Below are positions 3,296 through 25,186 of a DNA stretch of 31,921 nucleotides, piece by piece. This DNA is from a virus (Duplodnaviria; Caudoviricetes). Each line of letters opens with the position of its first letter. The stretch's first letter is position 1. A program made the translations under genes and the position numbers. The notes under the pieces were generated by a model. The model searched no databases, had not been told where the DNA came from, and was given only the letters and a program-made list of their open reading frames with translations. Location: IMG/VR virus record IMGVR_UViG_3300017747_000258, positions 1 to 31,921 of that record, one strand, 5' to 3'.

Positions 3296-4171
3296 ATGTT
3301 TAGGCGTTATCCTCGCGGCATCATTACAGCTAGTTTGCTTACGGGCACTTCGGGTGTCTACGACATAAGCGAAAGCCTCCAAGCCCCTCGGACTTATAGC
3401 GCCGACCTACTTATAATTGCGGGTGGTGGTAGTGGTGGCGGTGGCCCGCAAGGCGGCGGTGGCGGCGCTGGCGGGTATCTTACCTTTTCGGCGCAATCGT
3501 TTACGCCGGGTGATGTAAAGACCGTCACTGTCGGCGCAGGCGGCGCAAATGGAACAGGCGTTGGAAACAACGGGGTTAATTCGTCAGTAACGGGCCTAAC
3601 CGCAGCAGTGGGGGGCGGTGCTGGTGGCCGAAACGGACTTGCTGGTGCAGCGGGTGGTTCTGGCGGCGGGGCTGGGTCTAACTACCCAAGTACCAATCTT
3701 GCAGGCGGCACCGCCACATCAGGTCAAGGCAATAATGGGGGCACCACAACAGATAGTGCTAATTACTACCAATCCGGCGGTGGCGGTGGCGCTGGTGCTG
3801 TTGGTGGTAATGGTTCAACTACGGTAGCTGGGGTTGGCGGTAACGGCCTTGCCTCATCCATTACAGGAACATCAGTCACACGCGCAGGTGGTGGTGGAGG
3901 CGGGAATATCTACGGCGCAGGTGGCGCTGGTGGTACAGGCGGCGGCGGTGCTGGAGGCTCTACGGGGGGCGCAGGAACCGCAAATACTGGTGGCGGCGGT
4001 GGCGGCGCTAGTAACGGTGGAAATACCTTCGGCGCTGGCGGCTCCGGCGTTGTTATAATCTCTGTGCCGACGGCCAACTATAGCGGCGTAACCACAGGTT
4101 CGCCAACGGTTACAACCAGCGGCTCCAACACAATCCTAACTTTCACTTCATCGGGAAGCTACACGGCATGA
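3296..4171 (+). CDS. Glycine-rich fibre/adhesin-like protein A
   Basis: IAGGGSGG, GGGGAGG and AGGSGVVII motifs typical of phage polyglycine-rich domains. Confidence 0.75.
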   Translation: MFRRYPRGIITASLLTGTSGVYDISESLQAPRTYSADLLIIAGGGSGGGGPQGGGGGAGGYLTFSAQSFTPGDVKTVTVGAGGANGTGVGNNGVNSSVTGLTAAVGGGAGGRNGLAGAAGGSGGGAGSNYPSTNLAGGTATSGQGNNGGTTTDSANYYQSGGGGGAGAVGGNGSTTVAGVGGNGLASSITGTSVTRAGGGGGGNIYGAGGAGGTGGGGAGGSTGGAGTANTGGGGGGASNGGNTFGAGGSGVVIISVPTANYSGVTTGSPTVTTSGSNTILTFTSSGSYTA

Positions 4172-4521
4172 GCCATTTTGCAAAAGTCATCGACGGCATC
4201 GTCACCGAGGTTCTGGTCATCGAGCAGGACGTTATCGACACGGGTATGTTCGGCGATCCTGCGCTCTGGGTGCAGACATCATACAACACCTATGGCGGTC
4301 AACACCCCGAAGGGCGTCCGCTGCGTAAGAATTATGCAGGTATCGGCTACGCCTACGACGTGGTGCGCGATGCGTTTATCGCGCCGCAACCATTCGCGTC
4401 GTGGACGCTGAACGAAGATACGTGCCTTTGGGACGCGCCTGTAGCCTACCCAGATGACGGCAAGTCATACGCGTGGGACGAAGACACCTTGTCTTGGATA
4501 GAGGTTCCAAATGGCGAATAG
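4168..4521 (+). CDS. Small Trp/Tyr-rich partner of the glycine-rich proteins (possible fibre assembly/adaptor protein)
   Basis: ATGA overlap; WVQTSYN, RKNYAGIGY and FIAPQP..SW motifs; lies between the two Gly-rich paralogs. Confidence 0.65.
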   Translation: MSHFAKVIDGIVTEVLVIEQDVIDTGMFGDPALWVQTSYNTYGGQHPEGRPLRKNYAGIGYAYDVVRDAFIAPQPFASWTLNEDTCLWDAPVAYPDDGKSYAWDEDTLSWIEVPNGE

Positions 4522-5479
4522 GTGGCCCGGAGGGCTTATCCGTAAAACACCAGTTACCCCGACCACTTCTGCGGCTCCGGGGATTTGGACGTTGGCCGAG
4601 GCTGCGTATTGGACTAAGCAGGGGTTGTGGCCCAAACCGGTAGGTCCGTCGTACTCTGCAAGCTATCTCGTAATTGCTGGCGGCGGTAGTGGCGGAGCAA
4701 ACGATGGTGGTGGTGGCGGGGCTGGTGGCTACCTTACAAGCACCGCTACTCTTACTTCTGGCGCTGTGTATACAGTCACCGTCGGCGGCGGTGGGGCTAG
4801 TGTTTCGGGGTCAACCCTTGGGAACAGCGGTTCTAATTCATCACTTTCTGGGACAGGCGTAAGCGTTACTTCTACGGCTGGCGGCGGTGGCGGCTCTCAG
4901 AATGGAACCAATACAGGATTAAGCGGAGGCTCTGGCGGCGGTGGCGCATATTTCGCTGGCTCTGGGGGATCAGGTACCTCTGGGCAGGGTAATGCCGGGG
5001 GCACTGGCGAGAGTGGGTCTGGCGCTGGCGGTGGAGGTGGCGGCGCTGGTGCCGCTGGTGCTACACCGGCTGGGGGGTCATCAACCGGCGGTGTTGGCGG
5101 TAATGGCCTTGCCTCGTCAATCACAGGCACATCAGTTACACGCGCTGGCGGTGGCGGCGGTGGCGGCTATTTCGCTGTTGGTTCTGCTGGCCCAGCAGGT
5201 GGAGCGGGCGGCGGCGGGAACGGCGGCACGGATTTGGGCGGTTTTGCTAGTTTTGGTGGGTTTGGCGTAGCTGGTACTACTAATACAGGAAGCGGCGGCG
5301 GTGGCGGTGGCCCACCTAATAACTCAAATAATACTAGCGGCGCAGGTGGCTCTGGTGTGGTCATTATTTCCGTGCCAACAGCCAACTACACTGGTACAAC
5401 AACAGGAAGCCCAACGGTCACCACCAGCGGCTCAAACACAATCCTCCAGTTTAATTCGTCTGGGAGTTACACAGCATGA
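4511..5479 (+). CDS. Glycine-rich fibre/adhesin-like protein B (paralog of 3296..4171)
   Basis: GAGG SD; shares GVGGNGLASSITGTSVTRAGGGGGG and a near-identical C-terminal ~45 aa with protein A. Confidence 0.75.
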   Translation: MANRWPGGLIRKTPVTPTTSAAPGIWTLAEAAYWTKQGLWPKPVGPSYSASYLVIAGGGSGGANDGGGGGAGGYLTSTATLTSGAVYTVTVGGGGASVSGSTLGNSGSNSSLSGTGVSVTSTAGGGGGSQNGTNTGLSGGSGGGGAYFAGSGGSGTSGQGNAGGTGESGSGAGGGGGGAGAAGATPAGGSSTGGVGGNGLASSITGTSVTRAGGGGGGGYFAVGSAGPAGGAGGGGNGGTDLGGFASFGGFGVAGTTNTGSGGGGGGPPNNSNNTSGAGGSGVVIISVPTANYTGTTTGSPTVTTSGSNTILQFNSSGSYTA

Positions 5480-11867: not shown

Positions 11868-12034
11868 CAATCTTCTACCCAGCAAATAAAGCTGAATGGT
11901 ACGCCAAGGGTACGCTTGAGGGCGGCACCTATTTTGAAGTGCCTGCTGTGTTTAACGCAGACGGGGCTTGTGATACCGTGGCTACCGACGCTAAAGTGCA
12001 GCAGCTAATCTTTGCATTGAGTGAAAAAAGTTAA
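11858..12034 (+). CDS. Small hypothetical protein (58 aa)
   Basis: GAGGT SD and ATG at 11858; TAATG coupling downstream. Confidence 0.6.
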   Translation: MGITIFYPANKAEWYAKGTLEGGTYFEVPAVFNADGACDTVATDAKVQQLIFALSEKS

Positions 12035-14279: not shown

Positions 14280-15842
14280 ATGGATTACAACGCAGCTTCA
14301 CCTATGGGTAACACCCCACAGCTAGGCACCCCTATACCCGGCACTACGGGTGGTCTCCCCATGCAGGGTGGACTTAATGTAGCTCAGAACCCACTGGCGC
14401 AGCAGTTGCAGTCGCAAGGTCGCGGCGAAGACTCCATGCTTGTCCATATGACACCCGCCGAGGTTAACAGCCTCCAAGGCCTAGCTATGGCGCATGGCGG
14501 GTCACTTACCATTAACCCAGAAACAGGTCTTCCCGAAGCGGGCTGGCTTGGCAAACTACTCCCCACTATTCTTGGTGCTATCGCTACGCCGCTTACTGGG
14601 GGTCTTATCAACCCTCTAACTGCCAGCGCCTTGATTGGTGCAGGTACAGGTATTGCCACAGGTAGCCTCAAGAAAGGTCTGATGGCTGGTCTTCAAGCTT
14701 ATGGCGGCGCGGCTCTTGGTTCTGCGGCGGGCCTCAACGCAGGTTCTTTTGGTATCGGTCAGGCAGCAAACGCGGCTAATGTTGCTGGTGCTGCGGGTGC
14801 TGGTGCGGGTGCTGGTGCTGGTGCTGGTGCTGGTGCTGGTGCTGGTGCTGGTGCTGGTGCTGGTGCTGGTGCTGGTGCTGGTGCTGGTGCTGTGGGTACT
14901 AGCACGGCTGGGCTTACTCCAACTCTATCACTAGCCCCTGTCGAGGGTGCGGTTAATGTAACCGGAAATCTAGCTGGCGCTACTAGTCAGGTTGCGGGCC
15001 AAGCTGCTAAAACGGGTCTTGCTGGATTTGCTCAAAACTTCGGTAATGCGGCACGTGCGGGCTTACCCGCCGGTACTCCGGGGATTATCTCCAAAGCCGC
15101 ACCGATGATAGCGGGCATGGGCGTCATGGGTGGCATCAGCAATGCAATGGCACCTTCGATGGGCACCATGGGTTCGGATGGCGTAATAGATAACTCTTAT
15201 GCTGGTCCTTATACTGCGCAACGACGTACAGCTACTTTTGCTCCATCTACCGATGAGCTTCTTAGCTCGTCTAAAGAGCGGCGCTACTTCGACGTAGACA
15301 TGCCTGAAGTCTACAATATGCAGGGGCAAGTTGTGCGTCCGGGTTCCAGCACTGCATCGGGCACGCCGATTATGCAAAACGTTCTGAACCCTAATGCGAC
15401 GAAGGGTCAGAACCGCTACAACCAGATATTTAATCCCTATATGACCGGCGCTGATCTTGGCGAGATGGACATTAGCTATGCCGGAGGCGGTGAAGTTGAA
15501 TTGTCTGATGGAGCCTTTGTGCTCGATGCGCGCACGGTATCTGAAGTTGGTAATGGCAGCAGCAACGCAGGCATGGAAGCTCTTCGCCGTATTGGTGGCC
15601 GTCCGATTGATGGTCCGGGTGACGGAGTAAGTGATAGCATTCCTGCTCGTATAGGCCGCGACCAGCCAGCACGTGTTGCACGCGATGAGGTATTAGTACC
15701 CGCAGACGCAGTGCGCCGCCTTGGTAAAGGCAACCCGAAGAAGGGGGCCGACAAGCTGTACTCGCTTATGAATAAGGCGCACAAAGCCCGCAAGAAAGCA
15801 AAGCGCGGCCAAGACACTAAAGTACGTCGCGGCCTTGCATAA
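14280..15842 (+). CDS. Internal virion/DNA ejection protein
   Basis: Gly/Ala/Met-rich; TINPETGLPEA motif, hydrophobic Gly-zipper segment, (GA)n tract and GPGDGVSDSIPA domain. Confidence 0.65.
   Translation: MDYNAASPMGNTPQLGTPIPGTTGGLPMQGGLNVAQNPLAQQLQSQGRGEDSMLVHMTPAEVNSLQGLAMAHGGSLTINPETGLPEAGWLGKLLPTILGAIATPLTGGLINPLTASALIGAGTGIATGSLKKGLMAGLQAYGGAALGSAAGLNAGSFGIGQAANAANVAGAAGAGAGAGAGAGAGAGAGAGAGAGAGAGAGAGAVGTSTAGLTPTLSLAPVEGAVNVTGNLAGATSQVAGQAAKTGLAGFAQNFGNAARAGLPAGTPGIISKAAPMIAGMGVMGGISNAMAPSMGTMGSDGVIDNSYAGPYTAQRRTATFAPSTDELLSSSKERRYFDVDMPEVYNMQGQVVRPGSSTASGTPIMQNVLNPNATKGQNRYNQIFNPYMTGADLGEMDISYAGGGEVELSDGAFVLDARTVSEVGNGSSNAGMEALRRIGGRPIDGPGDGVSDSIPARIGRDQPARVARDEVLVPADAVRRLGKGNPKKGADKLYSLMNKAHKARKKAKRGQDTKVRRGLA
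14808..14891 (+). repeat. Perfect (GGTGCT)14 in-frame microsatellite encoding (Gly-Ala)14
   Basis: 84 nt of exact hexamer repeat; degenerate copies from 14784. Confidence 0.95.
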
Positions 15843-16273
15843 TGCAAGTTACGCTTATCCCTACCGAGCATGTGAATGGGTTGTGGCCTCGCATCTTTCC
15901 GCACCTGAGTAAAGCTGCGGAGTACACCTTTGGTCGGTATGAGCCTGAAGATATCCTCGACTCGATTACGCAATATGACCACCATCTTTGGGTTGCGTTT
16001 GTAGGCGAAGAGATCAAAGGTATTACGATAACCTGCTTTAAACAGTACCCGCGTATGTTGTGTCTTGATATGGTATTTTGCGCAGGCGATGAAGGTATGG
16101 AGTGGAAAGCCCCCATGCTTAAAATGTTGCAGCACTGGGCGTACGATAATGACTGTGATCGTATCGAGTCTTCTGGTAGGATCGGTTGGTCAAAGATTTT
16201 TAAAAACGATGGATATAAAGCACTTTGGCAGGTATATGAATTGCCAGTCGCAGATACAGGACTAGGAGCGTAA
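15842..16273 (+). CDS. GNAT-fold-like protein at the T7 gp13-type position
   Basis: LWVAF..IKGITIT, WAYDNDCDRIESSGRIGW; lies between ejection genes. Confidence 0.55.
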   Translation: MQVTLIPTEHVNGLWPRIFPHLSKAAEYTFGRYEPEDILDSITQYDHHLWVAFVGEEIKGITITCFKQYPRMLCLDMVFCAGDEGMEWKAPMLKMLQHWAYDNDCDRIESSGRIGWSKIFKNDGYKALWQVYELPVADTGLGA

Positions 16274-16274
16274 T

Positions 16275-17558
16275 ATGGGCGGTGGTGGCGGTAGCAATCA
16301 GGTACAGAGGTCGGAGGTTGTCCAGTCAACCCTCCCCGAATATGCACGTCCTTATTATGAAGGGTTGATGCAGCGTGCAGAGGCGAACCTAACGACGCCT
16401 TATCAGACTTATGGCCAAGAGCGTATTGCTGATTTTACGCAGCAGCAGCGGGGTGTCCAAAGTAATATCTTAAACCAGCAAACACCGGGTCAGTTTGGTA
16501 CTGCTACTGGACTTGCTTCTGATGTTGCGAACCGCTCAATCGCAGCGGGACAGTATACCCCGAGTCAGTTTAACGCCCAGCAAGTCAACGCACAACGAGT
16601 CGCTGCGCAGGATATGCAGGGTGCGCAATCCAACTACAACCCTAGCCTTAATTACTTCCAGATGCAGGGTCCGCAGATGTTCGGCGGTCAGCAGGCTGCG
16701 CAGTATATGTCGCCATTTATCCAGCAGGCGCTGGAACCTCAGATGCGCGAAGCCATTACAAGTGCTCGGCGTGGGCAGGTTGCACAAGACCTTGGCTCTG
16801 CGCGTCAGGGCACTTATGGCGGTAGCCGCCAACTTCTTGCTTCCATGGAGCGTGAGCGTAATCTCGGCCAGCAGATGGGTGATATTCAGTCTCGTGGTTT
16901 GCAGTCGGCGTATGAGAGTGCGCAGCAGCAGTTCGAGCGTGACCGCGCAGCGGGTATGACCACGGCGCAGCAGAACCAGCAGGCTGCTCTTGGTGTTCAA
17001 AATCTTGGGGCGGATATCGGCTCTCGCGTGGCATTAGCTAACCTGTCAAATGAGCAGCAGGCGCGGGTCAACAACCAAGCACTGCAACTCCAAGCTCAGG
17101 GTATGAATGCGGATAATGCACTTAAGGCGGCATTGGCTAACCAACAAGCTGACCTTGATAGGCAGCGTATGGCGGAGCAGTCGCGTCAGTTTGGTTCGCA
17201 GCAGGGTCTTGCAGGGTTGGCACAGGCTGGCCAGATGGGTCAGACGCTTTCTAATATCGGCTCGGCACAGTCGCAAGCCGACCAAGCGCGCTTTGGTTTG
17301 CAGACAAGCACAGCGGCACAGCAGCAAGCGATTAACCAGCAGCGTCTTGACCAACAATATCAAGACTTCTTGCGTCAGCGTGACTATCCGATGGAGCAGT
17401 TGCAGCAGTACAGCAGCTTGCTGCGCGGCGTTCCAGTAACACCTAGCTCGACGTCTACGACGTATGCTCCCAACGCTTCGCTAGGTTCGCAACTTATGGG
17501 TGGCGGTCTTGCTGCCGCTGGTATCTACAACACGGCTAATCGGGCGGGGTTAATTTAA
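16275..17558 (+). CDS. Gln/Ala-rich internal virion (ejection) protein
   Basis: AGGAG SD; MGGGGGS start, YMSPF, GTYGGSRQ and long Q/A helical tracts. Confidence 0.65.
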   Translation: MGGGGGSNQVQRSEVVQSTLPEYARPYYEGLMQRAEANLTTPYQTYGQERIADFTQQQRGVQSNILNQQTPGQFGTATGLASDVANRSIAAGQYTPSQFNAQQVNAQRVAAQDMQGAQSNYNPSLNYFQMQGPQMFGGQQAAQYMSPFIQQALEPQMREAITSARRGQVAQDLGSARQGTYGGSRQLLASMERERNLGQQMGDIQSRGLQSAYESAQQQFERDRAAGMTTAQQNQQAALGVQNLGADIGSRVALANLSNEQQARVNNQALQLQAQGMNADNALKAALANQQADLDRQRMAEQSRQFGSQQGLAGLAQAGQMGQTLSNIGSAQSQADQARFGLQTSTAAQQQAINQQRLDQQYQDFLRQRDYPMEQLQQYSSLLRGVPVTPSSTSTTYAPNASLGSQLMGGGLAAAGIYNTANRAGLI

Positions 17559-17559
17559 A

Positions 17560-18897
17560 ATGGATTCGAAACCATACATCTTGGAAGCTCCCCGGCAACT
17601 CCTTATGCAGTACGGGTACGACTTAGAAAAAATGGCTAAGGCTGCGGCTATGGGTATGGCCGACCCTACTGCTGTGGTGCTCGCTGGTATGCTTAAAAAA
17701 CGCGGAGATGCAGAGGCACAGAAAGCCCAAGTTCCACAGCAGACTATAGCGCAGCAAGTCTTTGCTCCTGCTGCGGCGGGTCTTGGTGCTACGCCACAAG
17801 CCGCAGCCATGCCGCCTATGAATGCTATGCCTCCAATGGGTGCGGCTCCTCCGCAGGGTGAAATGCCAATGATGGCTGAAGGCGGTATGGTCCCTCCTTA
17901 CGCTTCTGGCGGCGGTCTCTCCGATATGCCTCTGCCTGACGGTATGTTCGATGAGCCTAGCAACGGTGGCTTTGGTGATGGCTATCGCGGCGGTGGATTG
18001 GTTGCATTCGCCACGGGTAACGAAGTAGACGACGAAGCATATAGTCCTCCTGAAGAACTTGCGAAAGAACAACAGACCGGTGATATCGCAGCTTTTGGCG
18101 CGAAAACACCCCAAGTGAACCCTCTGGCGATGCAGGGTAGGGCTTTTGCGCCGTCACCTAACATACTTGCGAACTTTAAGCAGAATGTTCTTAGCAGCAG
18201 CGATCTATTCGATGAGCTATCGCCGTATAAGACCAAGAGGGCGAAGCAGCTTGAAGCACTCATTGAAGAGGAGATGTCTCCAGAGACACAGAAGTCTCGG
18301 GCCAAGGAAGATATGAATATGGCGATGATTAAGGCGGGGATTGCCATGGCAAGCACGCCCGGTTCTTTGCTCCAAGCTGCCACCGCAGGTGCTGGCGCAG
18401 CGCTCCCCGGTTTTGAAGCTGCTGCTAAGGAACGTCGTGGTGCGAAGCGCGCTCTAACCAAGGAACTGCTCGCTGAAGAACGGTTGAGCAATAAGGAACT
18501 TGCAGACCGCTTCGCTCTGTCTCTTGACATGGTGGTTAAGGGTATCGTTCCACTTGAAGAAGCATTCCAAGATCGGAACTTCCGTGATCGGTGGGAGACC
18601 TTGGGTCGTGACAGCCAAGAGCGTATTACTAAAATCAATGCGGCTGCGGGTATTCGACAGCAGCAGATTTCTACGTCAGGGTCACTTACTGTGGCTGGTA
18701 GGCAACTTGAGGGACAACGTATCGGTGCTGCCAACGCGATGGGGGATTTGGTTGATAGGATGCTAACGGTAGATGGTACTTACCAAGGGCTACTTGCTAC
18801 CAACCCAGCCGAAGCTTCTTTGTACCGCTCGGACTTGATTAAGAAGAACCTCGATAGGCAATTTGGCCCCGGTGCCATAGACTTAGGTAACTACTAA
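17560..18897 (+). CDS. Internal virion (ejection) protein
   Basis: Pro/Met-rich linker, [MY]AxGG motifs, helical C-terminus; positional context. Confidence 0.6.
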   Translation: MDSKPYILEAPRQLLMQYGYDLEKMAKAAAMGMADPTAVVLAGMLKKRGDAEAQKAQVPQQTIAQQVFAPAAAGLGATPQAAAMPPMNAMPPMGAAPPQGEMPMMAEGGMVPPYASGGGLSDMPLPDGMFDEPSNGGFGDGYRGGGLVAFATGNEVDDEAYSPPEELAKEQQTGDIAAFGAKTPQVNPLAMQGRAFAPSPNILANFKQNVLSSSDLFDELSPYKTKRAKQLEALIEEEMSPETQKSRAKEDMNMAMIKAGIAMASTPGSLLQAATAGAGAALPGFEAAAKERRGAKRALTKELLAEERLSNKELADRFALSLDMVVKGIVPLEEAFQDRNFRDRWETLGRDSQERITKINAAAGIRQQQISTSGSLTVAGRQLEGQRIGAANAMGDLVDRMLTVDGTYQGLLATNPAEASLYRSDLIKKNLDRQFGPGAIDLGNY

Positions 18898-18937
18898 GGG
18901 TAAGTGTAACGCTAACACCCATAAGAAAGCTGTATAG

Positions 18938-21900
18938 ATGCCCACTTACACGATGACAGGCCCCGATGGGCGTGTGTATAAGCTTGAAGCTGGAGCGGAT
19001 ATACCTAAGGAAAAGGTTGAAGCAGAGCTTCGTAGGCGTATTGGTGCGCAGTTAGGGGAGCAATCGACCCCTGCCGTTGTCGCACCTGCCGACGCTGCAC
19101 CAGTCCCCGTGGCTGCACCTACAAAGCAAGTTAAAGAGACAGCGTTAGAAAAAATACCCTATGTGGGTAAACCACTTGCCTTTTTAGCTGATATACCCAT
19201 GGGGATTATGAAAGGCACCGGGGCCGGGGTTGAGGCTATTGCTGGTGCTGCGGGTGCAGGGACAGACATCCGTAAAGCAATCAAAGACGTGCAGGAGATG
19301 GTTGACGAGTATATGTCTGCGTCTTCCAAGGAGGATGCACAAAAGCAGTCGAGCATCCTAAAAGAAGCCGAGGATAAAGGCATCCTTAATCAGGTGGCCG
19401 CAGGTATTAACGCCTTCGCCGTGGCTCCGATTGATACACTTACACAGGCTTTCGGTACGGCGGCGGCACCTATAGGGGCTACTGCCGCTGCTACTTATGC
19501 AGGTGCTCCTGCCGCTGTTGTTACTGGTGCAGGTGTTGTTACTGGTGGCCTCATGGGGCTAGGTGGCACTAAGAACGTTATATATGACGCAGTGCGCGAA
19601 GAGTATATAAAAGCAGGTGTATCAGAAGCTAAAGCCGAAGCTCTTGCCGATGCAGCGCAAGCATATAGTGGAGAAAACCTCGGACAAATCCTCCTTGGAG
19701 GTACGCTAGGTGCGATATCGGGTGTTGCCGGTATCGAAGGCGCTCTATCTAAGGTAGTGGGTCAGCGTGTGTTTGGGCGTCTTGCTGCAGAAAAAGCGGG
19801 TAAGGAAGCCGCCAAAAGTGTGGGACGTCGTGCACTGGGTGTTGCGGCTAAAGAAGGTGCCCCTGAGTTTATTCAGGGCGCGCAAGAAAAGCTTGCCACG
19901 AACCTTGCCCTTCAACGCGAAGGTTTCGACGTTGATACCATGCGCGGTGTGATTAGTTCCGGTACGATTGAAGGTATTGCTGGCGCGGGTCTAGGAGCGG
20001 GTATAGGTGCAGTTTCGGGCGGAGTAGATGGTGAAGTCGAGACCGGAACGAATCTAGCTAATTCCCCTCAAGTCGAGCAGGAATTTTACCGCTTGGTTAC
20101 TGCTGAGACGCAGGCGCTGCGTGACCAGAACCCTGACCTAACTCAACGTCAAGCCTATAACCAAGTCGTTAAGGACGCGGGTAAGCTGTACGACACAGCA
20201 ATCCTTAACACTATGCTTGGCGCAGAAGGAGCTACAGATGTCGCTGATGTTAATACCGGAGTGGATGACCTCGGAGGAACTGGAACAGGCACTGCTCCTG
20301 ATTTCGGAACCGCACCGCCCGCACCCAGTGCTACAGGCGTTGGAGAAACTATCGGAGGAGGACTGGAGCGACCTGTTTCTGGCGTATCAGTTTCTGATGT
20401 TGGCGCGGGAGCGGGAGTCGGTGCACTAGATGAAGCCAAGAACACCCTCGCTAACAAAAAGATCAAGCTGACCGAACGCGTTGACGTAGCTAGGCAGCTA
20501 CTGAACGACACGATACTCAACAACAAGCTTGTCAACGATGTTGACCAAAAGCAGTACGATGCGGCTAAGAACCAGCTTGCGAACGGTAAGCATAACGGTG
20601 ACCCTATGGCTGCGCTCGAAGCGGTTACAGGCAAGAAGTTCGCTGCCCCACCTCTGCCTCCTGCGACTACTGTCGCAGCACCGACTATTGAGGCTGCGCC
20701 TTCCATCGACGAAGTGGCTGTGGCTCCTGTTGCTGACGCGATTAAATCAGTCGCTACCACTACTCCTGATGTTGGCCCTATCCCGACCTTAGCTCAAACA
20801 AGCGCACAGCAGTTGGGTATTGCGCCTACGGTTGAAACCGCGCCTGAGATAGCGGCTACGCCTGATGTAGCTGTACAGGAAGATGTACAGGGTTATGTCG
20901 ATACACGACGGCAAGAGCTAGCAGCGCAAGAAGCTGCGGATGCCGAAGCCGAGGCGACCCTACGACAAGAAATCGAAGCGCGTAAGCAGCAAGAAGGAGT
21001 TGCACCTGCGCCAGTAACCGAAGAGATCGCACCCGAGGTAGTTGCTGCACCTGTTGAGGAAGCAGCGCCAGAAGCCGACCCTTATACTGACGTACTTGCG
21101 GACATTGAGGCGGCGCTAGCTGACGAGGCGATTGACGCAAAGACACATAAGCTGCTTACCTCGGCGGTAGAACGTCGCTTGCCACTGGAAAAAATTGAGG
21201 CCCAACTTGACGCAGCCCGCACGCGGAGTGCTGAGCGAGCTATGGGTGGCGGACGCTTCCGTCCGGGTGAACCCGGTAATATCACGTTGGACCAAGTCAT
21301 CCCCATCTTAGAAGACACGGCGGAGCGCACTGGTGTGCCAATGCCGAATATCGTCCAGTCAGTAGCTGACTTACCCCCTGCGCTTCAGGCGGCTGCTATT
21401 AGTGGAAGTAGTCTTACCCCATCAGGTGCAATAGACGCGGATGGTAATGTCTACATCATAGCAGATAACCTAACCACTGTCGAAGAAGCTGTAGCTACGC
21501 TTTTCCACGAAACCTTAGGGCATATGGGTCTTGCGAAGCAATTCCGGCAGCGGCTGGATAAAGTTCTGCGTGGTATGTACGACACCAACCGCAACCTGCG
21601 GGCTGAAACTAATGCTTGGCGGGAGCAAAACCCAGACGCATATAGCGAGGACGCAGACCCGATTGCCCGTGCAGTCGAGGAAATACTTGCACAGCGGTCT
21701 GAAGCAGGGCGGATTGAAGCAAGCCTGTTCGCTAAGCTAGCTGCTATTATAAAAGACTTTGCTCGTCGTATGCGCATCAAGGCAGCTTTTTCTGACGCGG
21801 AAATTACCACTATCCTTGCGATGGCCCATGACCAAGCAATTATGTTCCGCCCCGGCGAACGCGAGGTATTAGGAGGGATAGTCCCACAACCTCCAGAACG

Positions 21901-24900
21901 TGAAGCCCCTGCACCTAAGGTAGTATCCAATGGCAAGCAGGTCGTTCTGACCGAAGCGCAGAAGCGCACAGCGCTGGCCAAAGCTAAGGCTGCTCGGGAG
22001 AAGATGAACCGTATCCAGAAGCGAATTGCATCTACCAACGACACTGCTGATGTTCTGAGTGGTGGTATCGACCTCGTTAAACTGGCGCGTGGTGACAAGG
22101 AAAACTTGGCACTCCTTAGTGGTGCCATTGACGCCGTTGATGTAGGTAAGTGGCAGTTGATCCTACCAACCCTCTCGACCGAGGACATCTTCCGCATCCT
22201 TAAGGGGCGCATTCCGGGTCTCATAGAGTCTGACCGTATCACTCGGCAAGATATCCCACGGTTCCAGAGCAAGGAATATGGCCTTCTTGCAGAAGAGTTG
22301 GAGCAGATATCTGAGTTCCTGAAGAAGTACCCGAAGGCTGCACAGGCTCTATCGGACCTTGAGTTCGCTTCCGTGGCGTATCAGGTTGACCCGACGAAGG
22401 CAGCTACGCCTGAGGAGTATGCCAAGCTCGACAAGAAAACCAAGGAGCTTCAGACCGAACTAGGTAGCGTCACGGCTGGCGATGCCAAAGGCAAAAAGAA
22501 AGTCGAAGACAAAATCGCTCGTCGGTTTGCTGACATTAAAAGCGTCTACGTAGGTGTGCCCGGTGATGAGCGCGTGCTTGGTTGGCGTGACCTTGGTCGT
22601 CCGGAGTTTGGTGGCAATAAGGGCAAGGAAATATTCAAGCTTATCCGTGACGCGCATCGCCGTGATCTGGAAACTAAGTATAATATGCTTCGTAACCGCC
22701 TCAAGGAGACCAAGAAGGACAAAGACCTCGCTGAGGCATTGGAGAAGCTCGAAGCACAGTTCAAACCGGCATTGGAGCAGGTCATCTACTTCCCGGCCAT
22801 GCGCTTTGGTTCCTACTACGCACGTGTGGGTACGGGGGCTAATAGCGTCTTCAAGATGTTTGAAACGCGGCGCAAGCGTAACCAGTTTGTGCGGTTGATG
22901 AAAGTCCGTGGTGAAGAAGTCACCGATATCGGTAACGTCGAAGACCTACGGAACAACTTCGAGCAGATGGCGGGCGGTCCGTTGAAGGGAGTCCTCGACC
23001 TGTTTGGTGACAACCCCAAGGATATTGGTGCGTTGAAGAGCCAAGTCTTCGACCTATGGCTTCAGACTATGTCGGCTGGCGATATGCGCAAGCACATGGC
23101 TCCTCGTAAGATGCGCGCTGGTTATAGCACTGACATCTTGAAGAACTTTGCCACCTTCCGGCGCTCGTCCATTAACGATGTGAAACGCGCCAAGTTCGGT
23201 GAGCAACTGCGGATAGAGATTTCCCGGGCCAAGGATATGGTCAAGGATATGCCTGACCGCGAGAAGATGGAGGTTTTCATCAAGGAGATTGAACTCCGCA
23301 CGATGAACAGCCTGACGCCGGAAGCCCTTGGAAACAGCGCCTTAAACAAGATGATTGAGCTTGGTAACAAGGCGGCGTTCTACCAGTATCTGGCTAACCC
23401 TAAGACCGGCGTTATCCAGCTTACACAGCTTCACATCGTGGCGCTCCCGATACTGGCCCAGAAATACGGCCACGTTAATGCTACCGCTGCGTTGGCCAAG
23501 TACGGCTTTTCTGCTCTAGGTGGTTTTGCTACCAGCCCGCTCACGGCGATAAAGAAGGAAGACGGCAGCTATACCTTCAACTGGGAGCAACCAACCTTAC
23601 TGGATAACCCGGTAACTGGGATGAAGGAAGAAAGCGACCCAGAACTCTACGAAGTATTGTCTGAAGGGTGGAACGAAGGCCGCGAACTCAACATATTCAT
23701 GGATACATTTGCTAACGAGATTGGTGGTTTTGCTAACGCTGACCCCCAACAAAGCAGTGCTATTCAGGAGCTTATGAAGGGTCGTGTTCACACGGCTACT
23801 TGGCGTGGTGGGGTTTTTGTCCTCGACGCGATGGGGTCACTCATGCACCAGATGGAGCGCGTGAACCGCGAGGCTACCTACATGGCTGCGCTGGAACTGG
23901 CATACCGAGAGAACAAGGAGAAGGGCCAGACCCACGCCGAAGCAAAGAAGAACGCCATTGAAGCTGCTGTGGATACCACGCTAGCGGCTACGTTCGACTT
24001 CTCGTCGTATAACAAACCGCGTATTCTGACATCGCCGGTAGGGCGCGTTGCCGGTCAGTTCTACAGCTTCCCCTATATGATGTCGTCGCTGCTGATACGG
24101 AATATGTACACAGCGATTAAAATAGGAAAGCTTGAACCCGGAGAGCGCGTAGCCGCTATTGAGATAGCCACTGGCACGCTACTTAATTTGTTTGCGTACG
24201 CAGGGGTTAAGGGTGTCCCACTATATGGCGTCACCATGGGTATTGCCAGCATGGTGCTTTGGCTCGCTTCGCAGTTCGACGACGATGACGAAGAAGGTGG
24301 CCTGAGCTACATCGACAAGGATGGCAACATCAAGGCCACTTATAATGTTGACTGGTGGTTCCGGAATGTTTGGATACCCAAGTTCTTCGGCAAGGGTGGA
24401 ACGGTTCAAAACCTATTCGGGTACGATGACGATACCGCTGCTACAGTAGCTCTATCCATGGAAAAAGGGCCGATTTCGGCTATTACTGATGTTGACGTTG
24501 CCAACTCAGTAGCGTTGGACTTCATGTTCTTCGTTCCGGAGGAACCACGTGCAAAAACTCCTGAGGGCGTAGCGGGAGAATTAATGCTCAACTTCCTCGG
24601 CGGCGCGACCGCCAGTACGGGTATAGATTACTACAAAGCCATAGATGATCTGATGAACGGTTATACCAACCGTGCCTTAGAAAAAACGCCGAAGGTCTTT
24701 TCAAACGTGGCCAAAGCCAACCGCTTTGCTGAAGAAGGCCAGTTGAATTACGACCGCGAACTAGTTGGGATGCCTGAAGAGTTTTGGACTAGCGACAAAG
24801 TTGCGCTCCAGATGCTCGGGTTTGCCTCAACTGAAGCCAGCCAGCGGCAGGAACAGAACTATGAAGGCAGGAAGATTACGCAGAAGGTCAAGGCTTCTCG

Positions 24901-25186
24901 TGACGAGACACTGGCTAAGTTCCGCAAACTTGCGCTTGATAAGCACCAGTACGGGTTTACCCCCGAGGTGGCGAAGGCTCATAAAGAGTTTATGAAAGAG
25001 TGGGGCGAGTACAACAGGACGTTCCCAACCGACGTCATCAGCATCGACACGCTGTATGAGGTGGAGAGCAATGCTATCAATGCCGTACTGCGAAGTAAAG
25101 CTACCCGTGGTGTGCCGCTCGACGATAAGGGTAAGACCCCATATATGCGGGATATTCTCAAGCGCCGCGTGGAGGCAGAGAAATAA
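18938..25186 (+). CDS. Large polyvalent internal virion/ejection protein (2082 aa) with zincin-like metallopeptidase and PLxRFG-like motifs
   Basis: HETLGH at 21506-21523 with downstream EE (21677); YFPAMRFG at 22787-22810; Gly/Ala hydrophobic N-terminal third; last gene of the late region. Confidence 0.75.
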   Translation: MPTYTMTGPDGRVYKLEAGADIPKEKVEAELRRRIGAQLGEQSTPAVVAPADAAPVPVAAPTKQVKETALEKIPYVGKPLAFLADIPMGIMKGTGAGVEAIAGAAGAGTDIRKAIKDVQEMVDEYMSASSKEDAQKQSSILKEAEDKGILNQVAAGINAFAVAPIDTLTQAFGTAAAPIGATAAATYAGAPAAVVTGAGVVTGGLMGLGGTKNVIYDAVREEYIKAGVSEAKAEALADAAQAYSGENLGQILLGGTLGAISGVAGIEGALSKVVGQRVFGRLAAEKAGKEAAKSVGRRALGVAAKEGAPEFIQGAQEKLATNLALQREGFDVDTMRGVISSGTIEGIAGAGLGAGIGAVSGGVDGEVETGTNLANSPQVEQEFYRLVTAETQALRDQNPDLTQRQAYNQVVKDAGKLYDTAILNTMLGAEGATDVADVNTGVDDLGGTGTGTAPDFGTAPPAPSATGVGETIGGGLERPVSGVSVSDVGAGAGVGALDEAKNTLANKKIKLTERVDVARQLLNDTILNNKLVNDVDQKQYDAAKNQLANGKHNGDPMAALEAVTGKKFAAPPLPPATTVAAPTIEAAPSIDEVAVAPVADAIKSVATTTPDVGPIPTLAQTSAQQLGIAPTVETAPEIAATPDVAVQEDVQGYVDTRRQELAAQEAADAEAEATLRQEIEARKQQEGVAPAPVTEEIAPEVVAAPVEEAAPEADPYTDVLADIEAALADEAIDAKTHKLLTSAVERRLPLEKIEAQLDAARTRSAERAMGGGRFRPGEPGNITLDQVIPILEDTAERTGVPMPNIVQSVADLPPALQAAAISGSSLTPSGAIDADGNVYIIADNLTTVEEAVATLFHETLGHMGLAKQFRQRLDKVLRGMYDTNRNLRAETNAWREQNPDAYSEDADPIARAVEEILAQRSEAGRIEASLFAKLAAIIKDFARRMRIKAAFSDAEITTILAMAHDQAIMFRPGEREVLGGIVPQPPEREAPAPKVVSNGKQVVLTEAQKRTALAKAKAAREKMNRIQKRIASTNDTADVLSGGIDLVKLARGDKENLALLSGAIDAVDVGKWQLILPTLSTEDIFRILKGRIPGLIESDRITRQDIPRFQSKEYGLLAEELEQISEFLKKYPKAAQALSDLEFASVAYQVDPTKAATPEEYAKLDKKTKELQTELGSVTAGDAKGKKKVEDKIARRFADIKSVYVGVPGDERVLGWRDLGRPEFGGNKGKEIFKLIRDAHRRDLETKYNMLRNRLKETKKDKDLAEALEKLEAQFKPALEQVIYFPAMRFGSYYARVGTGANSVFKMFETRRKRNQFVRLMKVRGEEVTDIGNVEDLRNNFEQMAGGPLKGVLDLFGDNPKDIGALKSQVFDLWLQTMSAGDMRKHMAPRKMRAGYSTDILKNFATFRRSSINDVKRAKFGEQLRIEISRAKDMVKDMPDREKMEVFIKEIELRTMNSLTPEALGNSALNKMIELGNKAAFYQYLANPKTGVIQLTQLHIVALPILAQKYGHVNATAALAKYGFSALGGFATSPLTAIKKEDGSYTFNWEQPTLLDNPVTGMKEESDPELYEVLSEGWNEGRELNIFMDTFANEIGGFANADPQQSSAIQELMKGRVHTATWRGGVFVLDAMGSLMHQMERVNREATYMAALELAYRENKEKGQTHAEAKKNAIEAAVDTTLAATFDFSSYNKPRILTSPVGRVAGQFYSFPYMMSSLLIRNMYTAIKIGKLEPGERVAAIEIATGTLLNLFAYAGVKGVPLYGVTMGIASMVLWLASQFDDDDEEGGLSYIDKDGNIKATYNVDWWFRNVWIPKFFGKGGTVQNLFGYDDDTAATVALSMEKGPISAITDVDVANSVALDFMFFVPEEPRAKTPEGVAGELMLNFLGGATASTGIDYYKAIDDLMNGYTNRALEKTPKVFSNVAKANRFAEEGQLNYDRELVGMPEEFWTSDKVALQMLGFASTEASQRQEQNYEGRKITQKVKASRDETLAKFRKLALDKHQYGFTPEVAKAHKEFMKEWGEYNRTFPTDVISIDTLYEVESNAINAVLRSKATRGVPLDDKGKTPYMRDILKRRVEAEK
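20238..20429 (+). CDS. Overprinted 63-aa gene in the +1 frame of the giant ejection protein gene
   Basis: GAAGGAG (20225-20231), 6-nt spacer, ATG; protein-like amphipathic helical sequence; 11 of 16 host-frame Gly codons in the overlap are GGA. Confidence 0.65.
   Translation: MSLMLIPEWMTSEELEQALLLISEPHRPHPVLQALEKLSEEDWSDLFLAYQFLMLARERESVH

Follow-up and report, generated by a model that had tools for sequence, protein, structure and literature searches.

The giant virion gene in the 31,921-nt stretch of Caudoviricetes DNA analysed here (IMG/VR record IMGVR_UViG_3300017747_000258, the whole of which is referred to as the window) almost certainly contains a second gene of 63 codons, nested in its +1 frame. 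The original prediction of a real nested protein was strongly supported by the gene's own Shine-Dalgarno (SD) sequence, by selection on the nested frame, by conserved nesting and by a fixed C-terminal tail, and sequence comparison indicates that the family to which it belongs is real, widespread and unannotated. As regards function, we put at about 40% the probability that the product is a late, host-directed protein that engages the host Lon protease. Coordinates are collected in Table 1.

Table 1. Features of the nested gene, the giant gene that carries it and their upstream neighbours (window positions).
Feature	Positions	Strand	Remarks
Upstream DNA ejection protein gene, 427 aa	16275..17558	+	phrog_4287 'DNA ejection protein', E=1.9e-6
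Second probable ejection protein gene, 445 aa	17560..18897	+	between ejection and giant genes; function inferred
Giant gene, 2082 aa, probable ejected polyvalent protein	18938..25186	+	closes virion gene cluster
Small helical domain, giant protein residues ~372-429	20051..20224	+	directly before overlap, pLDDT 65-94
Shine-Dalgarno GAAGGAG	20225..20231	+	6 nt 5' of nested ATG
Host-frame residues 434-497, low-complexity linker merely kept open	20237..20428	+	dN/dS 2.2
Nested gene, 63-aa acidic helical protein	20238..20429	+	+1 frame of giant gene
Invariant Trp43 codon	20364..20366	+	always 21st residue counted from C-terminus
C-terminal E-S-V-H and stop	20415..20429	+	conserved S-x-[LVI]-H tail, predicted docking motif
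HETLGH zincin-like metallopeptidase motif, residues 857-862	21506..21523	+	HExxxH form

The nested ORF opens with the ATG at 20238 and is closed by a TAG at 20427-20429, and the SD, the 6-nt spacer and the 63-aa +1-frame ORF that had been described from the letters alone were all present, with a translation that agreed. SD-like words accompanied by out-of-frame ORFs of 35 or more codons are common by themselves (11 cases in the 12 window genes scanned); the case for the nested gene is carried by codon skew and conservation. From the nested ATG to the stop, 11 of the 16 glycine codons of the host frame, that is, the frame of the giant gene, are GGA, as against 19 of 161 in the rest of the gene (Fisher p=1.4e-6), which bears out a skew first noted by eye; in the 19 other plus-strand genes of the window the figure is 43 of 612. 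The best run observed held 12 GGA among 16 consecutive glycine codons and was matched by one of 20,000 shuffles in a scan-corrected permutation, which allows for the choice of interval. Across 118 giant genes carrying a nested member, GGA accounted for 868 of 1277 glycine codons within the overlap and 1774 of 18,145 outside it.

SD duplex energies, calculated against the anti-SD motif, were -7.3 kcal/mol for the nested start and -0.1 kcal/mol for the giant gene's own start. Energies of -7 kcal/mol or lower were found at 26 of 28 nested starts and at 7.3% of 2510 other out-of-frame ATG/GTG codons, a comparison that is partly circular since seven of the 28 had originally been found through the SD pattern. 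When the best candidate start was taken per locus, the nested SD exceeded that of the giant gene in strength at 96 of 108 loci, and the small protein would therefore be expected to exceed the giant protein on the same message. We infer that the nested gene is translated.

Frame-specific dN/dS, which had been named as a check on the gene, was 0.20 for the nested frame, 2.2 for the host frame and 1.0 for the third frame in a set of 19 distinct sequences over a 60-codon core, the pairs being non-independent. Identity among the 19 sequences over this core stood at 79% for the nested frame and 58% for the host frame, the former being the higher in 171 of 171 pairs. The last 26 codons gave the same direction in two other clades, with pN/pS values of 0.36 nested versus 2.10 host in the second (60 loci) and 0.58 versus 1.42 in the third (27 loci). 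Purifying selection thus preserves the hidden protein and not the overlapping host frame. Over the overlap the host frame is the G/T/A/P/V/S stretch that had been claimed; in the 118 giant proteins this region is rich in G, P, V and T with aromatic residues nearly absent, and a model of host residues 201-721 built from the single sequence, weak overall, predicted it as coil (pLDDT <50). The small helical domain before the overlap varies among giant proteins.

Relatives of the kind that the original prediction had looked for, nested in giant genes of ejection clusters and provided with SD-led starts, were readily found. Searches with the peptide returned 24 loci besides copies of the window (L001 and L025, identical to it and excluded from the counts), and in 25 of 25 sequences the ORF was intact, overlapped a long ORF in its +1 frame, possessed an SD and had its stop right behind S-[VLIM]-H, so that the +1-frame stops or missing SD-ATG that would have spoken against the gene were not seen. 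A profile search extended the family to 234 clusters at 50% identity (E up to 0.001), and scans with distant members added 117 loci, 115 of them nested in +1 and two stand-alone. Genomic context, available for a minority of the clusters, covers 120 distinct members, and in 118 of the 120 a giant gene held the member in its +1 frame. Complete host ORFs (n=91) ranged from 1404 to 3092 codons, and the nested gene ended at host codon 370-884, about a quarter of the way along (median 0.28). Gene calling had picked up six of six members of one further cluster (P0145), on contigs of 14-53 kb, which hints at another stand-alone lineage. Because its members are buried in genes of about 2,000 codons, the family is invisible to routine annotation, which hundreds of clusters of one phage protein have thereby escaped. 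Among cultured phages, four members searched by tblastn in 50,697 phage records produced no more than four short matches attributable to chance, and the family profile found nothing in stretches from seven of them (L116-L120, L239 and L240, the stretch from L240 not including the giant gene); GTDB genomes yielded 0 loci.

The two stand-alone copies (L122 and L123) have their own AGGAGG-ATG and both lie inside the ejection cluster, that of L123 following the homologue of the 427-aa gene and sitting between homologues of the two smaller ejection genes. They form a clade with three nested members (support 100 in a quick tree of 60 columns), and at third codon positions their GC is 0.15-0.24, that of the nested sisters being 0.69-0.82 and that of the genomes 35-40%. 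Escape from the overlap appears the simplest reading.

To estimate occurrence without bias, a structural gene 6-8 kb upstream was taken as bait; among the best 80 of its 600 matches, 35 had at least 4 kb of downstream sequence, which extended as far as the giant gene in 33 (all but L067 and L106). A nested homologue was present at 14 of the 33 loci and absent from 19, corresponding by eye to about 12 and 10 distinct phages. All 14 were intact, in +1 and His-ended, several being only 22-38% like that of the window, and neither a homologue outside a giant gene nor a decayed copy was seen at these 33 loci. Six of the negatives were read beyond the usual site, the sequences of the others being incomplete, and at least six distinct giant genes (L040, L047, L051, L075, L083 and L110) lack the nested gene, that of L040 lying in a locus whose tail gene is 93% identical to the window's; loci with a tail gene about 70% identical carry nested versions 22-87% identical to the window's. 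As 14 of 33 bait loci carry it, always intact, the nested gene is accessory, and a patchy presence of this sort would be typical of host-interaction genes. The suggestion that it is inseparable from its ejection protein thus fails, given the stand-alone copies and the giant genes that lack it. Some giant proteins hold QxxLF-like motifs, presumably sliding-clamp binding motifs (four in L110, one each in L040, L075 and L083), which are not linked to absence of the nested gene since they also occur in 42 of the 118 that carry it.

The helical reading of the peptide was upheld by an AlphaFold2 model with helices at residues 12-23, 33-37 and 40-62 (mean pLDDT 88). No family match was obtained in Pfam, in PHROGs (including 0 of 121 distant members) or among PDB sequences, nor in the ESM Atlas with two queries; PADLOC matched one of 30 members at E=0.002, which we did not take as a family match, and structure searches gave nothing at E<=0.001, the best Z of 5.0 being typical for small helical arrangements. 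It is an acidic protein, with a median net charge of -5 across its final 55 residues. No hydrophobic or membrane segment was found in 118 members (top 19-residue hydropathy 1.4), and there was no signal peptide or lipobox, the window protein being without Cys.

All 103 nearer members, whose pairwise identity goes down to 16%, share Trp43, Leu53 and the terminal His, and in every one of the 120 members with context the Trp occupies position 21 counted from the C-terminus. The penultimate residue is V, L or I in 100 of the 103 and in 115 of the 120, and the third-last residue of the nearer members is S in 63, T in 20, R in 10 and L in 6. Only two of 433 long ORFs at the same loci end in His. In the 137 distant representatives, counted after a repetitive protein of 2426 aa (P0092) had been discarded as a false match, the last residue is His in 125, Gln in 10 and Asn in 2, and in the 120 members with context it is His in 77 and Gln in 43, the Gln ends all falling in one subclade. 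Eighteen of the 137 have Pro as their third-last residue, which suggests that the last few residues are extended, and the fixed distance from Trp to tail suggests more than a free tag.

Among relatives the nested protein retains 85-89% identity while the N-terminal, peptidase and C-terminal modules of the giant protein differ. Compared with the window, one locus (L014) had identities of 0.87 in the nested protein, 0.07 in the N-terminal, 0.21 in the C-terminal and 0.05 in the peptidase module, and two others with a nested identity of 0.89 had a different peptidase (L011) or no peptidase (L026). Among 129 pairs whose nested proteins were at least 75% identical, the N-terminal modules had a median identity of 0.26, the C-terminal 700 residues one of 0.53 and the peptidase regions one of 0.24, and 40 of these pairs differed in possessing a peptidase. 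The Spearman correlation of nested identity with the giant modules was weak (0.16-0.29). This exchange of modules around a constant nested protein argues against two roles raised in the original prediction, a chaperone of its own host protein and an inhibitor of the metallopeptidase. For the latter, the C-terminus of the nested protein would enter the zinc site, and the motif noted downstream in the window was indeed present; HExxH or HExxxH occurs in 83 of 91 complete giant proteins, and in 102 of 102 cases the nested gene precedes it. The nested gene does not, however, track the peptidase, since the eight of 91 without either motif keep it and five giant genes with the motif lack it, and with the divergent peptidase regions of close pairs this makes inhibition improbable. 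Where the C-terminal 700 residues of the giant proteins were at least 70% alike, the nested proteins had a median identity of 78% and only 2 of 89 pairs fell below 50%; shared ancestry explains this, as binding to that domain would. We regard as rather unlikely a chaperone role in the assembly or loading of some conserved component of the virion (ejection proteins, the portal or the tail), with the excess then being cleared and the His tail a degron only. The protein is small, acidic and co-transcribed, keeps a constant position within the giant gene, stays with the C-terminal domain in close pairs and when stand-alone remains within the ejection cluster, but the weak correlation with the giant modules and the absence from at least six giant genes, one adjoining the 93% identical tail gene, speak against such a role.

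Superinfection exclusion, in which the protein would stop ejection by related phages, had also been put forward and would suit both the ejection-cluster position and the accessory distribution. Exclusion proteins that block ejection typically have membrane segments, however, and a protein with no hydrophobic segment, signal peptide or lipobox, and with no pairing to a type of ejection protein, lends no support to this idea, which we hold very improbable. An account scarcely credible is that a programmed +1 frameshift yields a truncated giant protein bearing this tail, or that the ORF is a by-product of constraint on the host frame. SD-like sequences can stimulate +1 shifting and translation of the nested frame is so far predicted from sequence, but a +1-frame stop stands immediately 5' of the ATG at 5 of 25 loci, ATG and GTG alternate at initiation spacing and the stand-alone copies have their own start signals; the by-product version is at odds with host-frame ratios above 1 in three clades.

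Being conserved, accessory, soluble and indifferent in sequence to its carrier, the nested protein therefore most likely binds something in the cell, and its partner is presumably a host-cell component. We suggest that the small protein, made in excess on a message shared with ejection proteins, would dock on the host Lon protease through its S-x-[LVI]-H tail, which would be its sole exposed invariant feature, and, more speculatively, that it would act as a decoy or competitive inhibitor of Lon shielding the largely unfolded ejection proteins, by analogy with the way of working of PinA, a Lon inhibitor of phage T4 (PMC8835725). Lon substrates are reported to end in VTLH, FTVH, LSLH, GLYH and PIIH, with degradation abolished by change of the His, and S or T likewise occupies the third-last position in three of the substrates tested (PMC11986505). 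LarA has an end helix and a short tail, of which V88-H89 binds the Lon N-terminal domain (PMC10665427; PMC11882793), and the AlphaFold2 model of the nested protein, like LarA, ends in a long helix.

Against engagement of Lon stand the Gln ends in 43 of the 120 members and the Gln or Asn ends in 12 of the 137 distant representatives; half-lives with the one Lon tested were 402 min for Gln, 401 min for Asn and 152 min for His (PMC11986505, Table S1). The third-last residue is moreover mostly S, T, P or R and not L or I, often with an acidic residue before it, whereas the published motif is x-L/I-L/I/V-H and the LSLH substrate was the weakest tested, with a KD of 30 uM (PMC11986505). As about 3.9% of ORFs in the genome studied there end in such motifs (PMC11986505), the tail may only set half-life. 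Alternatively, the tail might bind another host protein (a protease, chaperone or defence component) in counter-defence or takeover unrelated to Lon. All the evidence favouring a host partner applies to this reading as well, and the exchange of His, Gln and Asn would resemble a pocket that reads a side-chain NH donor and not Lon's aromatic pocket (PMC11882793); with no named candidate, no relative in PADLOC, Pfam, PHROG or PDB, and His remaining the majority end, we consider it a fairly unlikely one. For Lon engagement we tentatively, and with more reserve than for the general proposal, envisage a phage family of Lon modulators carried out of frame in ejection genes with the linker as carrier only, in which a His tail like those of LarA and SulA would occupy Lon during ejection-protein synthesis, would be retuned from His to Gln according to the host and would occasionally escape as a free gene. 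If the tail does dock on Lon, the family would represent a new class of phage protease modulators and would allow a direct test of what keeps ejection proteins intact in the cytoplasm until they are packaged.

The arrangement recalls the embedded Rz/Rz1 spanins of lambda-like phages, where a small gene lies wholly within a larger one in another frame and where related phages have the small gene either embedded or separate (PMC6139136). In contrast to Rz1, the nested protein has no lipobox Cys, is no lipoprotein and belongs to no lysis cassette, and in contrast to Rz its host is not a short i-spanin gene but one of 1404-3092 codons in an ejection cluster; moreover, the two proteins seem not to be partners, and the nested frame is the conserved one. 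To LarA, a DUF1150 activator of Caulobacter Lon, the likeness is a resemblance only, of an end helix and a short V/L-H tail; unlike LarA the protein is phage-encoded and nested, one subclade is Gln-ended, its binding to Lon is predicted, and the DUF1150 Pfam model matched none of 30 members at E up to 1. It shares a terminal His and penultimate L, I or V with Lon C-terminal degrons (PMC11986505), and differs from them in its mostly polar third-last residue, its frequent Gln end and its fixed geometry to a folded core. Like T4 PinA (PMC8835725) and lambda CIII, which inhibits FtsH and is itself its substrate (PMC1838920), it would be a small phage modulator of a host ATP-dependent protease, in this case a predicted one; unlike them, it is nested, which neither PinA nor CIII is known to be, and no member has a PHROG match. 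No description of this family or of its nesting was found in the literature searched, which was largely open-access. The system is a natural case in which a nested frame is conserved as the annotated frame drifts and in which the transition from nested to stand-alone is sampled, and it lets gene birth, capture and escape be studied.

The virion cluster runs from a structural gene (phrog_3287) at 12034 through the two smaller ejection genes, the 445-aa one being conserved in relatives at 37-72%, to the giant gene, after which primase and helicase genes lie on the opposite strand. By the structural gene, the closest cultured phages (DSL-LC04, CRP-901/902, HTVC023P/027P and MinM2) are 28-32% alike. 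The C-terminal half of the giant protein is 21-25% identical to DarB-like/PLxRFG phage proteins, phrog_30335 matches residues 1630-1773, and from gene order and these relatives the protein is probably ejected with the DNA. It resembles the polyvalent MPTase and DarB-like proteins in being giant and modular, in its HExxxH motif, a variant known for polyvalent-protein MPTases, and in its DarB-like C-terminal region (PMC5512222), and differs from them in giving no Pfam match; the main text of that study does not contain the words 'overlapping', 'linker' or 'low-complexity'. The window's peptidase region is homologous in four other loci (L012, L019, L076 and L101). The giant proteins are mosaics in which N-terminal, peptidase (HExxH, HExxxH or none) and C-terminal modules have been swapped independently.

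A search for a second recurring nested gene in the giant genes gave 69 candidates, with no cluster above four close relatives. Four related giant genes (L132, L134, L136 and L137) share a second +1 ORF, SD-led and beginning with ATG, which is about 47-51 codons long and lies at about host codon 793-928. The cultured Synechococcus phage MinM2 (L120, OQ594354.1) has an unannotated +1 ORF of 69 codons from 18098 onward, at host codon 737 of the giant gene annotated as RelA/SpoT (15886-24297), with a strong SD, CAGGAGGAGAGG-ATG (-10.3 kcal/mol); lying outside the present family, it is a candidate nested gene in a cultured phage. The window's own giant gene holds a further GTG-led basic +1 ORF of 61 codons with an SD-like word (19767-19952), which clusters with no candidate from another locus and is probably due to chance. 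An ORF from 14809 onward, in the +1 frame of 14280-15842, is a by-product of repetition, a Gly-Ala repeat of the host frame giving a Val-Leu repeat. Finally, two glycine-rich genes of the window (3296-4171 and 4511-5479), both matching PF21722 and phrog_2295, are probably duplicated tail-fibre parts.
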